Shown here one piece after another: positions 5,597-30,240 of a stretch of DNA of 64,000 bases. Where the stretch lies: positions 4,810,315 to 4,874,314 of the forward strand of contig OZ245024.1 of NCBI GenBank assembly GCA_965223875.1, given 5' to 3'. The position numbers and the translations under genes are program-made. The first letter of the stretch is position 1; each line of letters opens with the position of its first letter. The notes beneath the pieces were generated by a model. It was not told the DNA's origin, made no database searches, and was given only the letters and a program-made list of their open reading frames with translations. Source of the DNA: Candidatus Multivoradales bacterium. Lineage in GTDB: Bacteria > Acidobacteriota > Thermoanaerobaculia > Multivoradales > JAHEKO01.

Positions 5597-6553
5597 CTAA
5601 TCGAGCAGCTCGGACCCTTCGTTCACCCCGACCCAGCTGTACCAGAAAGTGTCGAACCCGTTGAGCCGCTCGGCTCCGTCCACCGTCCCCTCACGCAGCC
5701 GCATCGCCAGCTCGGCGGGGGAGGCCGAGGCGGCGAGCGAGGCATCCACCATCCAGGCGTCGCTCGAGGCGTAGAACGAGGCCCCCGGGCGCCGGTGGAA
5801 GAGGAGCTTGTGTCCGGCGGCGTCGTAGAGATTGCCGCCCTCGATCGCCCGGTGGGTCACCGCCCAGGGCTTGCCGGCGAGCCAGAACGAGAAGATGTGC
5901 TCCTTGGGCGGCAGTCGGTCGTCGTCGATCTCGAGGCCGCGGAAGGTACCCTCCGACGTGAAGTAGTTGTCGTAGGGGTTGTTGGCTTCATGCTCCTTTC
6001 CGGCGACGGACAGGATCGTGGTCCCCGGATAGCGCAGTTTCCACTCACCCCAGGTCGTCTTCTCGCCGAAGGGGAGCTCTTCGAGGTCGGTTCCGTCGAG
6101 CGCTCCACCGATCGCGTCCGAGGTCATGATCGACCACCAGCTGTCGGTCTCGCGGTCCCGCATCACCAGAGTGGCGCTCATCAGCGCCCCTGAGGCCTCG
6201 AAGTTGAGCTCCCTACCTTCCACCGAGCGGCCGTAGACCACGGCCGTATTGGCCAGCGGTCACCAGACCGCGGCGACCGGGAGGTCGGCGAAACGGTCGT
6301 TGACCACTTCGTGGTGATTGAGCAGGTTGAGGCTGTAGGCCTTCGCCTCGTCGCCGATGGCGACACCGAACACCCAGGCGTCGTCGGGGATATCGGCCTC
6401 GGCGGCGGCGACGAAGGTCGGCTCGGTCACCGCGGCGATGCGGCCGCGGGGGAGGAGCTGTTCGACGCCTTCCGGCGGCGCGTCCTGCCCGGCGAGCGAG
6501 CCCGTGGAGAGCGCCAGGAGCACTAGAGGAGTGACAACGTGGTGGGTTCTCAT
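5597..6553 (-). CDS. DUF3179-family protein with in-frame UGA (codon 98), putative selenoprotein, N-terminal signal peptide
   Basis: The two track ORFs (tail of 6260..7471 and 5597..6241) are in the same frame and separated only by TGA at 6260-6262. The joined sequence reads AYSLNLLNHHEVVND...VAAVW-U-PLANTAVVYGR...LVMRDRETDSWW. ATG at 6553; 318 aa. Confidence 0.8.
6222..6262 (-). promoter_or_regulatory. Candidate bacterial SECIS element
   Basis: On the minus strand: TGA, 13 nt, then a perfect 7-bp stem CGGCCGT/ACGGCCG with apical loop GGTCT (20 nt from UGA to loop; loop starts with G), plus a possible lower stem ACCG/CGGT. Confidence 0.6.
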
Positions 6554-20599: not shown

Positions 20600-20839
20600 C
20601 TACGGCTCTACGATGCCTGGCGCGAGCCTGTCGAGCACGGTTTCGGAGAGGTGCCAGGCGTCGAGGGCTGAGAGGGAGGGCGTCCAGTTGATGTCGAACA
20701 CTACGGCCTCGCCGTCGCGGAGAACATAGTCGAACTTCCCGAGATCGAAGCCGAGGTCGGCGCGTAACCGGCGCAGCTCATCGGGGACAGGCGCCTCCTC
20801 GAGGTCGAAGGCGTCCGGGGAGAGGCCTGTGCTTCGTCG
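20600..20839 (-). pseudogene. 79-codon start-less gene remnant resembling the C-terminus of an ATP-grasp-like protein
   Basis: Manual translation: RRSTGLSPDAFDLEEAPVPDELRRLRADLGFDLGKFDYVLRDGEAVVFDINWTPSLSALDAWHLSETVLDRLAPGIVEP*. No start codon; lies in frame directly after the glycosylase TGA. Confidence 0.5.
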
Positions 20840-21460
20840 TCACGTCCTGCTCCGTTCGAGGATTCGCCACAGGTACCAGCAGGCCTGCGACCTGTGCGGT
20901 CGCCAGGGCTCTGCGAGCGAGAGCATCCGCTCGCGGTCGGGTAGCTCCTCGAGGTCGTACAGCAGTTGCATCCCCTGCTGGATGCCGTAGTCGCCGAGTG
21001 GCAGAACGTCGGGCCGCAGGAGATCGAACATCAGGAAGATCTCGGCGGTCCAGGGACCGATGCCGCGGACCGTGGTCAGCATCTCGACGATCTCGGCGTC
21101 CGCCAGGCGATTGAAGCGGCGCGGTTGCACCACGGCGTCGAGATAGGCGTGCGCCAGGTCGCCGAGGTAGGTCGCCTTCTGACGTGACAGGCCGGCGCCG
21201 CGGAGCGCCTCGAGGCTCGTCTCGGCGACCTCGCCGGGTGTCGGAAACCGGCCCTCGGGATAGAGACGGAGGAATCGGCCGAAGACGGCCTCAGCCGCTG
21301 TGGCGGCCACCTGCTGATAGATGATGGCGCGGCTCAGGCTGCGGAAGCTGTTGCGCGTGCGTTTCCAGGGCGGTGGCCCGTAGATTCGGTGGATCTCGTC
21401 GAATCGGGGCTCGAGACGCGCCAGTCGACGGGCGATCTCTTCCCGGGCTCCCTCGGCCAT
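20840..21460 (-). CDS. alkA: DNA-3-methyladenine glycosylase II (AlkA/HhH-GPD family)
   Basis: AIIYQQV, GLSRQKA, HhH motif VRGIGPWTAEIFLMF, DVLPLGD and WRPHRS. Confidence 0.85.
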   Translation of the reverse strand: MAEGAREEIARRLARLEPRFDEIHRIYGPPPWKRTRNSFRSLSRAIIYQQVAATAAEAVFGRFLRLYPEGRFPTPGEVAETSLEALRGAGLSRQKATYLGDLAHAYLDAVVQPRRFNRLADAEIVEMLTTVRGIGPWTAEIFLMFDLLRPDVLPLGDYGIQQGMQLLYDLEELPDRERMLSLAEPWRPHRSQACWYLWRILERSRT

Positions 21461-25601: not shown

Positions 25602-27512
25602 ATGAAGACCAGACGTTTCACCCTGGGTCTGGCTCTGCTGCTCGCCGTGGCAGTGGCCGCGCCCACCCTTGCACAGGACGTAGTCCGGATGGATCCGGTG
25701 CGCCCCGTCTTAGTGCCGCCCCTCCGCGACATGGACTTCGCGCCCGTGGCGCCCACCGGCTTCAACGTCGAGATCCCGATCCGCGTCGTTCCCGGAGGCT
25801 CCGAGATCGATAACGGTATCGTGTTCCCGGGAACCCAGCGTGAGCTGACCGGCGTCAACTCGCCGGCGCCCCTGGTGAACTTCATGGGGCAGTCGGACGA
25901 CGACAACGCCGCCACCGTCGGAACCCGCATCGTTCCGCCCGACACCGATGGCGGCGTCGGACCGAACCACTACGTGCAGTGGATCAACCTGATCGCGGAG
26001 ATCTACGACAAGAACGGCAACTCGGTTCTCGGTCCCTTCGCGGGCAACGCGTTCTTCACCGGTCTCGGCGCTCCCTGTGCCACCGGCAACAGCGGTGATC
26101 CGCTGACCATCTACGATCAAAAGAACGATCGCTGGGTGGTCTCGCAGTTCGCTCCGAACCAGGGTCGCCAGTGCATCGCGGTCTCCCTGACCAGCGACCC
26201 GACCGGCTCCTACTGGGCCTACGATGTTGCCGTGGGCGGCTTCAACGACTATCCGAAGCAGGGCCTCTGGCTCAACGACACGCGTGACGTCCTCAGCCTG
26301 ACCTACCGCAACTTCGGCGGACCGGGCGGCGGCATCAGCCTCGACTTCCAGGTCCTCGACTACGCCGCGATGCTCGGCGGCGGTGCGGCGGCCTCGGCCA
26401 TCTTCCGCTCCGGCGGCGCGCCCTTCCTCGAGGGGACCATCCCGGCGGACGTCGACGGTACGACCTACCCCTCCGGTGATCAGGCTCTCTTCGGTCGCGT
26501 GTCCAGCAACGGCGCGGCCTACGAGGTCTACGGCTTCGACGCCAACTTCGGCGGTGGTGTCCCGACCTGGAACGGCCTGATCGACACCGCCTCGATCGGT
26601 CCGATCGATCGTGGCATCGGCCGCGTGCCGCAGCCGGCTCCGGGTGAGCCGCTCGACGATCACTCGCAGTTCACCATGAACCGGATGGCCTTCCGCGAGT
26701 TCGGCGGCTACGACCAGATCCTGGTCGCGGCTTCGGCCGACTCGGGCGGCGATGTGGCGGCGGCCTACTGGGCCGAGCTGCGCAGCAACGCCAACGGCAG
26801 CACCAACTTCAGCGCCCACCAGGAGGGCATGTACTCGCCGAACAACTTCGGTCCGCGCCTCGAGCGCTGGATGGGCTCCATCGCGGCCGACAAGAACGGC
26901 AACATCGCTTACGGCTACTCGGCGTCCAACAGCGTCGCCATGCCGTCGGTCCGCTACGCCGGTCGCAAGGCGTCCGACACCCTAGGCATCCTGCGTGACG
27001 AGATCGTCGCGGCTGCTGGTGGCGGCGTCCAGACCGCGTCCGCCAACCGCTGGGGCGACTACTCGAACATGTCGGTCGATCCGACGGACGACTGCACGTT
27101 CTGGTACACCACCGAGTACTACGCCAATACGGGTGGTTTCGACTTCAAGACCCGCATCGTCAGCTTCCGCTTCGACGACTGTGGCGCGACCGGGACCTCC
27201 CCGTCGATCAGCATCGTCAGCGGTGCCTGCGGCGGCACGGTGACCATCCAGGGTACGGGCTTCGCCCCGAACTCCGAGGTCGCGATCGTTCGTTCGCCGA
27301 ACACCAACGGCTTCATCAAGGGTGGCCCGCAGTGCAACTCGGCCATCTTCGAGGTCGGCGAGCCGCTCGTCGGTGGACCTTTCTTCGCCTTCCCCGACGC
27401 CAGCGGTAACTTCAGCGTCGGTGTGTCGGTTCCGGCAGGTGCCTGCCTGGTCGAGGCTCTCGACTACGGCGGCGGCTGCGAGACCACGGGCGCCTTGGAC
27501 ACCAGTCCGTAA
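25602..27512 (+). CDS. Secreted Gly/Asn/Asp-rich protein of the uncharacterised PPDxxG.VGPNHYVQ / RWGDYS family, with a small Cys-containing C-terminal domain
   Basis: Signal peptide MKTRRFTLGLALLLAVAVAAPTLA; motifs PPDTDGGVGPNHYVQWIN, GDPLTIYDQKNDRW, DYPKQG, RWMGSIAADKNGNI and RWGDYSNMSVDPTDDCTFWYTTEY. Confidence 0.75.
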   Translation: MKTRRFTLGLALLLAVAVAAPTLAQDVVRMDPVRPVLVPPLRDMDFAPVAPTGFNVEIPIRVVPGGSEIDNGIVFPGTQRELTGVNSPAPLVNFMGQSDDDNAATVGTRIVPPDTDGGVGPNHYVQWINLIAEIYDKNGNSVLGPFAGNAFFTGLGAPCATGNSGDPLTIYDQKNDRWVVSQFAPNQGRQCIAVSLTSDPTGSYWAYDVAVGGFNDYPKQGLWLNDTRDVLSLTYRNFGGPGGGISLDFQVLDYAAMLGGGAAASAIFRSGGAPFLEGTIPADVDGTTYPSGDQALFGRVSSNGAAYEVYGFDANFGGGVPTWNGLIDTASIGPIDRGIGRVPQPAPGEPLDDHSQFTMNRMAFREFGGYDQILVAASADSGGDVAAAYWAELRSNANGSTNFSAHQEGMYSPNNFGPRLERWMGSIAADKNGNIAYGYSASNSVAMPSVRYAGRKASDTLGILRDEIVAAAGGGVQTASANRWGDYSNMSVDPTDDCTFWYTTEYYANTGGFDFKTRIVSFRFDDCGATGTSPSISIVSGACGGTVTIQGTGFAPNSEVAIVRSPNTNGFIKGGPQCNSAIFEVGEPLVGGPFFAFPDASGNFSVGVSVPAGACLVEALDYGGGCETTGALDTSP

Positions 27513-27535
27513 GCGTTCCTCTCGTTCGTAATCCG

Positions 27536-27566
27536 AACCCCTCGTCCTTCGGGACGAGGGGTTTTT
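27536..27566 (+). terminator. Rho-independent terminator
   Basis: 12-bp stem AACCCCTCGTCC/GGACGAGGGGTT with a TTCG loop and a T-run, 23 nt after the stop codon. Confidence 0.9.
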
Positions 27567-27570
27567 CTTG

Positions 27571-28743
27571 GTGCGCCAGGCATGGCGCGCAGCGCCATGA
27601 TCTGGCGCTGGATAACCGGCGAGCGAAAGCGGACCGGGAAGTGACTTTGGGGGTGCGAGTCCCCTGGAGGCCTTGATGGCGGGAACTCCTAGCCGAACAG
27701 CAACCGCTTCGTCGGGAGGCGCGGTGGGAAGGCAGCTGGAGGCAAAGCCCCGGCCCGAGTCACACGAACCGCATAAGAGGCGTCCGTGGGGTGGGCGAGG
27801 GGGCCAAGAAACCCGAAGCCCGATGCCATCCGGACCGTTCGGGCGTAGATGCGGCGGGTGTATGGGGCGAAGGTCACGCGTCTTACCCTGGGAGGTCTGC
27901 TCGTCTGCCGAGAGGCTAGCGGGGCCGCGCGGTGTCGCGAGGGGTGGGCAGAAGTCAGCCGAGGCCATAGTAGTCGCCGCACAGGGCGACGAAGGGCCGA
28001 ACACGAGGGAGTCGAGCTCGTGACGTTGCGTTCGACGGACGCAGGAGGCGCAGGAACGAGGGCTGAGAGGCCCGAGCGCTCCCGTGAGGTAGGCGGCGGA
28101 ACCGCCGAGGTAGCGGGAAGTGAGCGTCAAACGTCTGCGGCACGCAACGTCGGGACGAGCGAGGGGACTCCGGGACTCTTAGAGGAGGTGCTGTGCCGTG
28201 AGAACGTGATGGCAGCGTATCGCCGCGTGGTGTCGAACGGTGGGGCAGCGGGTGTCGACGGGATGCGTGTCGAGGATCTGATGCCGTACTGCCGCGAGCA
28301 CTGGGCGGCGATCCGGGAGGAGCTGTACAGGGGGACGTATCGACCCCAGCCTGTGCGACGGGTATCGATCCCGAAGCCGGGCGGGGGTGAACGTCTCCTG
28401 GGTATCCCCACGGTGCTGGACGAATGGATCCGCCGCAAGCTGCGCGTCATCTACTGGCGCCGGTGGAAGCGACCCAAGACCCGGTACCGAGAGCTCAGGC
28501 GCCGCGGGATCGATCCCGCGCGCGCTCGTGTCTCGGCGGGCAACGGTCGTGGACCGTGGTGGAATGCTGGCGCTCGCCACATGAACCACGCGGTACCGAC
28601 CCAGACCCTCCGCCGGATCGGACTCGTGAGCGTCCTCGACGAGCATCGGAGACTCCAGTGCCTCTCGTCAACCGCCGTGTACGGAACCGTATGCACGGTG
28701 GTGTGGGAGCCGGGGGCGGGTGACCGCCCTCCGGCTACCCGAT
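27571..28743 (+). mobile_element. Group II intron, bacterial class C (IIC), internally deleted
   Basis: 5' end GTGCGCCAGGCATGGCGC; domain V AACCGCCGTGTACGGAACCGTATGCACGGTGGT (CGC triad); domain VI ending CTACCCGAT; located 4-5 nt after a terminator, the known IIC target context. Confidence 0.88.
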
Positions 28744-28772
28744 TTGCCCTTTGGACCTCTCGCGCTCTCTGA
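28020..28772 (+). pseudogene. Group II intron reverse transcriptase/maturase with RT core deleted
   Basis: RT0-RT2 start (AYRRVVSNGGAAGVDG, YRPQPVRRVSIPKPGGGERLLGIPTVLD) is fused directly to domain X (EWIRRKLR...WKRPKTRY...GRGPWWNAG); no YADD motif. Confidence 0.88.
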
Positions 28773-28794
28773 ACCGCTGGCGCCTCGCGCCCGC

Positions 28795-30240
28795 TCAGAG
28801 TGAGCTTCGGGCGAGCTCTATCTCGCCCCGCAGGTCCTCGAGAGCCAGCTCCATCCGGTCCCTGTGGGTGCGGAAGGAGAGCACGCAGATGCGAACGACG
28901 AAGCGGCCGTCGAGCCGCGTCGCGGTGAGGTAGACCCGGCCACGGCGGTTGACGCCGAGCATGATCCGTTCGTTCAGAGCGTCGACCTCGTCGTCCGAGA
29001 GCTGCGGCGGCGCGTAGCGGAAGGCCAGCAGTGAGAGCTGCGGCGGGCAGGTGATCTCGAGGTGCTCGATCTTCGCCAGTTCCCCGGTGATCCACTCTGC
29101 CAGGTCGAGCTTCTCGTCCAGATTGAGACGGAAGGCCGAGAGACCGTGCATCTTGAACGGAAGCCAGACGCGCAAGCCGCGGAAGGGACGGGAGAGCTCG
29201 GGGGAGATCTCGCAGAAGTCGACGAGATCGGGATCGTCCTGGATCGGCGGCATGTAGTCCGCCGCCAGGCTGTGCGATCGCCGCAGTGCTTCGCCGTCGC
29301 GAACCAGAAGAGCGCCCGTTCCGTAGGGGAGAAACAGACCCTTGTGCGGATCGAGGACGATCGAGTCGGCGCGCTCGAGCCCGCCCATCACCCGTCGGCC
29401 CCGTTCGGTGAGGGCGAAAAAGCCCCCGTAGGCCGCGTCGACGTGCAGCCACAGCCCTTCGTCACGGGCGACGTCGGCCAGCTCGTCGAGCGGATCGACG
29501 GCGCCCGTGTTGGTGGTGCCGGCGTTGCCGTTGACCAGAAAGGGCCGAAGCCCGGCGTCGCGGTCGCGCCGCACGGCCTCGCGCAGGGCCTCGGGCCTGA
29601 GCCGCTGCCTCCCGTCGACTGGCAGCCGGCGCACGTTGGCGGCCGGGAAGCCGGCCAGCATGGCGGCCTTGGCGACCGAGTGGTGTGTCTGATCCGAGGC
29701 GTACAGGATGCCGTCCTGGAAGCTCTCCCCGAGGTGCTCCAGTCGCGCCGTGGTGAGGCCGGTCAGGTTCGCCAGCGAGCCCCCGGGAGTGAGAATGCCC
29801 CGGGCCGCGGCGGGGTAGCCGACGATGTCGCAGAACCAGCGCACCACATTGGCTTCGAGCTGTGCCACCGCGGGGGCCGCGGCGAACACCCCGGTGTAGC
29901 GGTTGAACGAGTCCGACAGCAGGTCGGCGACCGCGCTGTGGAAGAGTCCGCCGCCCGGAACGTAGGCGAGGTAGCCCGGCCCGGCGGTGTTGAAGCTCTT
30001 CGGAACGGCGCGCTGGAAGAGCAGGTCGAGAAGCTCGTCGGCAGGGACGCCGACTTCGGGAGGCATCGCTTCGGCGAGAGAACGGGCCACTTCGACCGCC
30101 CCTGCGGTGTCGGCCGAGGGTTGCTCGGGGAGCGACTCGATGTGCTCCACGATGCGAGCCATCGCCGCATCGACGAGAGCTCGCATCTCGCCGGCGGAGA
30201 GCTCGAGCGGATTCGTCTCCCGGTTCAATTCCCGGCTCAC
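28795..30240 (-). CDS. PLP-dependent group II decarboxylase (aromatic-L-amino-acid/glutamate decarboxylase family)
   Basis: GGSLANL, GTTNTGAVDP, WLHVDAAYGG and DSIVLDPHKGLF (PLP lysine). Confidence 0.9.
   Translation of the reverse strand: MSRELNRETNPLELSAGEMRALVDAAMARIVEHIESLPEQPSADTAGAVEVARSLAEAMPPEVGVPADELLDLLFQRAVPKSFNTAGPGYLAYVPGGGLFHSAVADLLSDSFNRYTGVFAAAPAVAQLEANVVRWFCDIVGYPAAARGILTPGGSLANLTGLTTARLEHLGESFQDGILYASDQTHHSVAKAAMLAGFPAANVRRLPVDGRQRLRPEALREAVRRDRDAGLRPFLVNGNAGTTNTGAVDPLDELADVARDEGLWLHVDAAYGGFFALTERGRRVMGGLERADSIVLDPHKGLFLPYGTGALLVRDGEALRRSHSLAADYMPPIQDDPDLVDFCEISPELSRPFRGLRVWLPFKMHGLSAFRLNLDEKLDLAEWITGELAKIEHLEITCPPQLSLLAFRYAPPQLSDDEVDALNERIMLGVNRRGRVYLTATRLDGRFVVRICVLSFRTHRDRMELALEDLRGEIELARSSL

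Follow-up and report, generated by a model that had tools for sequence, protein, structure and literature searches.

The question raised by this locus is whether a TGA codon lying inside an otherwise intact gene ends translation or is read as selenocysteine (Sec). The gene sits near one end of the window, by which is meant the whole 64,000-nt stretch of Candidatus Multivoradales DNA that was analysed. The original prediction had joined two open reading frame (ORF) calls into one 318-residue frame, and retranslation agrees with it. The minus strand at 5597-6553 reads as a single frame of 318 codons whose sole internal interruption is the TGA at 6260-6262, codon 98, in the context VAAVW-[TGA]-PLANTAVVYGR. 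The Pfam family DUF3179 (PF11376) matches this translation on both sides of the TGA, over residues 38-308, with 186.8 bits (E 8e-55) against a gathering score of 27 bits. Profile positions 3-286 of 292 are covered, which places the protein within the family. The features of the gene are collected in Table 1.

Table 1. Features of the DUF3179 gene in the window, and tRNA-Sec genes next to related genes (the latter in coordinates of their own loci)
Feature	Position	Strand	Basis or remark
Complete DUF3179 selenoprotein gene (predicted), 318 codons including one UGA (Sec98)	5597..6553	-	sequence, translation, Pfam PF11376
Start codon ATG	6553-6551	-	translation
Predicted Sec-type signal peptide, residues 1-21, MRTHHVVTPLVLLALSTGSLA, cleavage before GQ	6491..6553	-	sequence
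His80-His81-Glu82	6308..6316	-	H-E 17 residues before Sec, conserved in the wider family (x-x-H-E-I/V)
In-frame UGA, residue 98, very probably read as selenocysteine	6260..6262	-	aligns to Cys; TGA/TGC/TGT in relatives
U-P-L-A motif, codons 98-101	6251..6262	-	C-P-L-C in the wider family
SECIS-type hairpin, stem CGGCCGU/ACGGCCG (7 bp), loop GGUCU	6228..6246	-	pairing, covariation, synonymous constraint
214-residue ORF, GTG start within the hairpin loop	5597..6241	-	gene-caller output; P0002 in the protein collection
R-D-R-E-T-D-S-W-W block, residues 132-140	6134..6160	-	most conserved motif downstream of Sec
Stop codon TAG	5599-5597	-	translation
tRNA-Sec(UCA) downstream of a DUF3179 gene	L069:6140-6236; L072:4080-4174; L076:5564-5660; L100:3123-3217		four related loci

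The identity of the residue at codon 98 is best approached through relatives of the gene. The TGA had been expected to fall on a conserved cysteine. Among 28 full-length homologues it aligns with a near-invariant Cys (at least 90% conserved) within the motif W-C-P-L-A-N. At the DNA level, 79 of 80 loci taken from one-per-species genomes have TGA as the homologous codon and the remaining one has TGC. A second set of 79 loci was retrieved from metagenomes with a query built solely from Cys forms, and here TGA is found in 66 and TGC or TGT in 13. Both sets pooled, TGA accounts for 145 of 159 loci and TGC or TGT for 14, and neither TGG nor any other sense codon was found at position 98 in these 159 loci. 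The original prediction had called for this check of the codon in relatives. The loci carry the labels of Acidobacteriota (mostly Thermoanaerobaculia), Krumholzibacteriota, Latescibacterota, KSB1, Calditrichota, Gemmatimonadota and Myxococcota-labelled metagenome-assembled genomes (MAGs), among others. On a family tree made from the N-terminal 153 residues, with the Sec/Cys site itself removed, at least four switches between Sec and Cys are needed to account for 12 Cys forms. The gene thus has a UGA aligned with Cys and, on either flank, sequence conserved as protein, as would be expected of a selenoprotein gene.

The SECIS element of the E. coli fdhF type is a SelB-binding hairpin in which the loop G-U is essential. 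A candidate hairpin begins 13 nt 3′ of the window UGA, with the loop G and U at 6238 and 6237. The loop has the general form NGUNU in relatives, and the window copy has all seven stem pairs together with the GU loop. In 80 Sec-form sequences the stem cells are paired 90% in register; shifting the partner by -3 to +2 lowers this to 25-33%, and a shift of +3 to 58%. On average, 6.3 of the 7 pairs are present in Sec forms and 4.4 in Cys forms (p 5e-10). Covariation is seen at two pairs among 137 unique Sec forms. Pair 21-31 is C-G 129 times, U-A eight times and never broken, and each of its U-A cases combines an Ala change from GCC to GCU with a replacement of Gly GGC by Ser AGC. At pair 18-34, G-C is seen 116 times and U-A six times, the latter produced by a synonymous NCG to NCU change along with Arg CGN to AGR.

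Constraint on synonymous sites falls on the same nucleotides. Codons 38-190, which span residues -60 to +92 relative to the UGA, were each assigned a synonymous entropy. Codons +5 and +6 of the 5′ arm have the lowest values, ranking 1 and 2 of 73 four- or six-fold columns, and codons +9 and +10 of the 3′ arm rank 1 and 2 of 34 two-fold columns. The third positions of the loop codons, +7 and +8, are freer than those of the stem arms. These loop codons specify Val-Val in 136 of the 137 unique Sec forms and Ile-Val in the remaining one, with the loop G-U invariant, while Cys forms have AV, AA, LV or other pairs at this site. The case for the hairpin is made by register, covariation and synonymous constraint, and stability adds nothing to it. 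The hairpin region is no more stable than shuffled sequence (z -0.45), no difference in local folding energy was found between Sec and Cys forms, and in DNA this rich in G+C folding stability was rejected as evidence. A further lower stem, ACCG/CGGU (3-6/38-41), was also rejected, being paired in 27.5%, the background level. The hairpin stands directly 3′ of the UGA with G/U at its apex, as a SECIS element should, and by analogy with fdhF would be the expected kind of SelB-binding element.

Alignment with Cys, the TGA, TGC and TGT codons of relatives and the conserved hairpin together support the original prediction that UGA encodes Sec in place of the first Cys of the family motif, and recoding of codon 98 is very probable on this comparative evidence. 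SelB carrying Sec-tRNA(Sec) would bind the G+C stem and its invariant apical G-U in the mRNA, the UGA would be recoded during translation, and the locus would encode one exported 318-residue selenoprotein of the DUF3179 family.

The other readings of the TGA have to be weighed against the same observations. It could be a true stop, arising from a nonsense mutation, marking a pseudogene or separating two products, a 97-residue peptide and the 214-residue ORF from the GTG at 6241. Automatic calling, which gives only the latter ORF, agrees with such a stop. Yet the same TGA recurs in 145 loci from several phyla, both flanks are strongly conserved as protein and Cys takes its place in the remainder; neither the signal peptide nor one half of the N-terminal domain would be part of the 214-residue product; and the window copy retains a perfect hairpin and a frame with no further stops. 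A true stop is exceedingly unlikely. Read-through that needs no selenium, by a near-cognate tRNA-Trp or tRNA-Cys for example, would follow loss of the Sec pathway and give a low-yield protein with Trp98 or Cys98. A Sec-less lineage would be expected either to fix TGC, as 14 relatives have done, or to lose the hairpin, but no stem pair has been lost from the window copy and its GU loop persists, so that this kind of read-through is very unlikely. Nothing beyond the in-frame TGA itself speaks for a genome-wide reassignment of the codon (codes 4 or 25) or for a sequencing or assembly error at the base. TGA is the commonest stop in the window, closing 21 of 37 ordinary, well-supported genes and lying within none of them, and the genetic code is therefore the standard one. 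A 1196-nt Logan contig, assembled independently in metagenome runs X3 and X4 (two samples of one study), matches 6128-6553 without differences; it carries the same TGA, which is therefore not an assembly error. Reassignment and error are almost certainly wrong.

Recoding to Sec also explains how the gene came to be listed in a shortened form. The 214-residue ORF, the last 214 codons of the gene, is an annotation artefact, and about 90 among the best 120 database relatives listed are likewise proteins of 210-220 residues that start just past the TGA position, which suggests genes split by the same stop. With gene calls truncated in this way, the exported, Sec-containing nature of the proteins is hidden in most metagenome catalogues.

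The surroundings of the gene were surveyed for other components of Sec metabolism. A six-frame scan for TGA codons with at least 40 codons of coding-type GC3/GC2 on each side yields two sites in the 64 kb, codon 98 and the ordinary stop of the gene at 20840, and no second selenoprotein was found with it in the window. The gene at 20840-21460 is followed, past its TGA stop, by 79 in-frame codons with a coding-like GC3 of 0.82 (20600-20842, minus strand). The context, RSRT*RRST, is not Cys-like, and this extension is probably due to chance or to an overlapping feature. No tRNA genes, no selA, selB, selC or selD and no SelD-like sequence were found in the 64-kb window, and the neighbours of the DUF3179 gene are unrelated to Sec (an MR/MLE-type enolase-superfamily enzyme, a nucleotidyl transferase and an amidohydrolase). 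Across related loci no conserved gene neighbour was found, the best neighbour cluster being present in 8 of 81 loci. An Rfam scan of the window returned nothing except a group II intron, domains D1-D4 of which are matched at 27708-27997 on the plus strand (RF02001, 107.7 bits; RF01998, 62.9 bits). These hits fall in a gap of the gene map, 27512-28795, and probably represent an intron or its remnant.

Related loci are more informative in this respect. Four of them, from KSB1-like or unclassified MAGs, have a tRNA-Sec(UCA) gene downstream of the DUF3179 gene, at a distance of 0.1-2.2 kb from its end, and the four tRNAs (in L069, L072, L076 and L100) are about 92% identical to each other. A tRNA-Sec adjoining the orthologue in four loci ties the DUF3179 family to Sec-using genomes. 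The ORF beside the tRNA-Sec of L069 was considered as SelB and rejected, since it encodes an M1 peptidase that carries a Por secretion tail. When a relative's tRNA-Sec was compared with metagenome runs X1-X4, only 35-40-nt pieces from many organisms were recovered, none of them assignable to the window genome. In a further locus, from MAG Bpl_12, the DUF3179 gene is preceded, at a distance of about 2.6 kb, by a sequence coding for the C-terminal part of an AIRS_C-domain protein (L057:2-439, plus strand). Comparison with an approximate E. coli SelD sequence gave 31% identity over 140 residues, and the protein could be SelD or another AIR-synthase relative. As for the window genome, the perfect hairpin and the intact frame argue that a Sec pathway is likely to be present.

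The predicted product begins with a signal peptide, called by inspection by eye and a hydropathy heuristic. MRTHHVVTPLVLLALSTGSLA, followed by GQ, has a positive start, a hydrophobic core of 10-12 residues and small residues at -3/-1. In the AlphaFold model, pLDDT is below 50 at residues 1-3 and 12-22. Similar hydrophobic N-termini are present in 130 of 133 related loci with a readable start, in keeping with the original prediction of an exported protein. The peptide would direct export of the protein by the Sec translocon, either into the periplasm or onto the cell surface. In five loci (L013, L020, L028, L039 and L007) a lipobox-like L-x-x-C closes the signal peptide, and part of the clade may be lipid-anchored instead of soluble in the periplasm. 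Elsewhere in the family, a protein of 1587 residues in the representative library (P0122) contains five or six DUF3179 repeats alongside five fibronectin-III domains and some Ig-like ones, and has C-S-N-C at the equivalent site. Its domain company points to an extracytoplasmic DUF3179 module.

The residues around codon 98 set the window clade apart from the wider family. Searches at E <= 1e-3 gave 7610 representative clusters, and the motif was read in about 110 distant representatives: CPLC occurs in 60, CPLA in eight and CPLT in six, and the first Cys is absent in a few. DUF3179 proteins thus normally have CPLC, as had been stated from the start. U-P-L-A is found in the window protein and in all 145 Sec-form loci. 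The original prediction had read this motif as Sec paired with Ala in place of the resolving Cys. The motif itself stands, but its coupling to Sec does not, since the Cys forms of the clade have CPLA; the clade is U/C-P-L-A throughout, in Sec and Cys forms alike.

The window protein contains no Cys at all. Among 128 Sec-form relatives 105 likewise lack Cys, and 22 have one distant C-terminal Cys pair that is probably structural. Sec98 would therefore be without an intramolecular partner and act alone, which reinforces the earlier proposal of a mono-selenol site. Upstream, the conserved His-Glu may have a role beside Sec98. Downstream, the RDRETDSWW block has invariant columns at D133, T136, S138 and W140 in the 28 full-length homologues. 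The Logan contigs of X3 and X4 fragment at window 6120-6157, exactly over this block, into many pieces of 31-35 nt with high depth, and several DUF3179 genes with words in common there seem to be present in the source metagenomes.

What the selenol does can be approached through the predicted fold and the variation of the motif. AlphaFold models of the full length (pLDDT 88.8) and of residues 38-190 (pLDDT 93.8) are almost all beta, with residue 98 closing a beta-strand. Sec98 would stand at this strand end in the all-beta N-terminal domain, in place of the first Cys of C-P-L-C. A thioredoxin-fold oxidoreductase was rejected, given the almost all-beta models, the position of residue 98 at the end of a strand and a lack of matches to thioredoxin-family Pfam entries. 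Most probably Sec98 is a redox nucleophile with a single selenol that depends on an external thiol partner, in analogy with known selenoenzymes; its catalytic cycle would include a selenenic acid or else a mixed selenenylsulfide formed with that partner. A redox nucleophile is favoured because the family varies among CxxC, CxxT, CxxA and UxxA, a thiol-redox pattern, and because Sec/Cys pairs among homologues usually mark catalytic redox residues.

Structural searches raise another role for the residue. With Foldseek the full-length model has no match in the PDB at E <= 0.001. The N-domain model gives recurrent analogues that are solely of Rieske fold (NirD, 3c0d and 4aiv; Rieske ISP, 8hn2; dioxygenase ferredoxins, 3dqy and 3gce), at E ~1, with probabilities of 0.5-0.66 and TMt ~0.5. 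Profile searches of PDB sequences gave no link from DUF3179 to any solved structure, no match to Pfam Rieske was obtained even at E <= 10, and no NCBIfam model matches the window protein. A Rieske [2Fe-2S] domain was rejected, as the CxH...CxxH ligands are absent and the likeness of fold is limited to Foldseek matches at E ~1. The resemblance of the modelled N-domain is a lead only.

If this lead were followed, Sec98 could be a metal ligand instead of a redox nucleophile, and the gene would still be a selenoprotein gene. The selenolate and His would make up a site on a Rieske-like beta-sandwich, formed by two loop tips, H-E 81-82 and U/C-P-L-x 98-101. The recurrence of Rieske folds alone among the analogues fits such a site, as do the use of C-P-x-C as a common metal "knuckle" and the His-to-Cys spacing of 17, which resembles the Rieske ligand pattern CxH-(15-17)-CxxH. 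The Foldseek values are, however, not significant, sequence comparison provides no link to Rieske proteins or to solved structures, and replacement of the second Cys by Ala, Thr or Ser within one family is a thiol-redox habit that would be costly for a metal site. A ligand role is possible but doubtful. A bolder proposal, and an unlikely one, is that the U-P-L-A clade is a distinct, almost obligately Sec-dependent extracytoplasmic enzyme of several phyla that are associated with sediment, soil and sponges. A lone selenol, in a protein devoid of Cys and on a cluster-less Rieske-like scaffold beside His-Glu, would there catalyse a periplasmic redox or chalcogen/metal-handling reaction new to enzyme families.

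The clade is a clean candidate for work on DUF3179 function, offering a single selenol, no Cys, a signal peptide and a confidently predicted fold in a family that reaches about 7600 representative clusters. Selenium use is also made likely by the gene, both for a sponge-type Acidobacteriota genome and for many lineages not yet in culture. Knowledge of Sec decoding itself is unchanged by it.

Several known systems can be set beside the gene and its product. Like the SECIS of E. coli fdhF, the window element is a short hairpin in coding sequence just 3′ of the UGA with an apical G-U, and its loop, GGUCU, resembles that of fdhF. In contrast, the G-U is found at +25/+26, counted from the U of UGA, versus +23/+24 in fdhF, and the hairpin has no bulged U. 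A C.A mismatch at the fourth stem pair, a further departure from fdhF, is found in 46 of 80 genome-derived relatives and is absent from the window copy. In its chemistry the protein may be likened to enzymes of the glutathione peroxidase type and to methionine sulfoxide reductase B of the 1-Cys type, single-Sec redox enzymes dependent on an external reductant, which also use one catalytic selenol without an intramolecular resolving Cys and interchange Sec with Cys among homologues. Their folds and sequences are unrelated to those of the window protein, which is predicted to be extracytoplasmic. With cluster-less Rieske folds (NirD, the nitrite reductase small subunit; 3c0d, 4aiv) and Rieske ferredoxins the predicted N-domain shares an all-beta sandwich over 80-90 residues and a spacing of about 17 residues between functional positions on hairpin tips. 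It differs in having neither CxH/CxxH ligands nor sequence similarity, the match being insignificant at E ~1, and the C-terminal half of DUF3179 is without a counterpart there.

The closest comparison is with selenoproteins of the same family. Sec-containing DUF3179 variants had been said to be annotated already, and this is the case. The NCBI product name for relatives is "DUF3179 domain-containing (seleno)protein", applied also to a 62%-identical Cys form. DUF3179 is among the listed prokaryotic selenoprotein families with the motif UxxC/T (PMC9312934, PMC13188914), and both reviews trace the listing to Zhang & Gladyshev 2007 (PMC1976440). The selenoprotein type of the window gene is thus known to databases, and the gene adds a modest motif variant to it. 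It shares with the listed proteins the Pfam family, Sec at the first position of C-P-L-C, the existence of Cys homologues and a hairpin after the UGA. The UxxC/UxxT pattern does not extend to the window protein, which has U-P-L-A, and its clade has Ala at the fourth position throughout, with most members lacking any other Cys. What goes beyond tabulated knowledge is this U-P-L-A motif, the total absence of Cys and a clade that, in the sampled loci, is about 90% Sec across several phyla.
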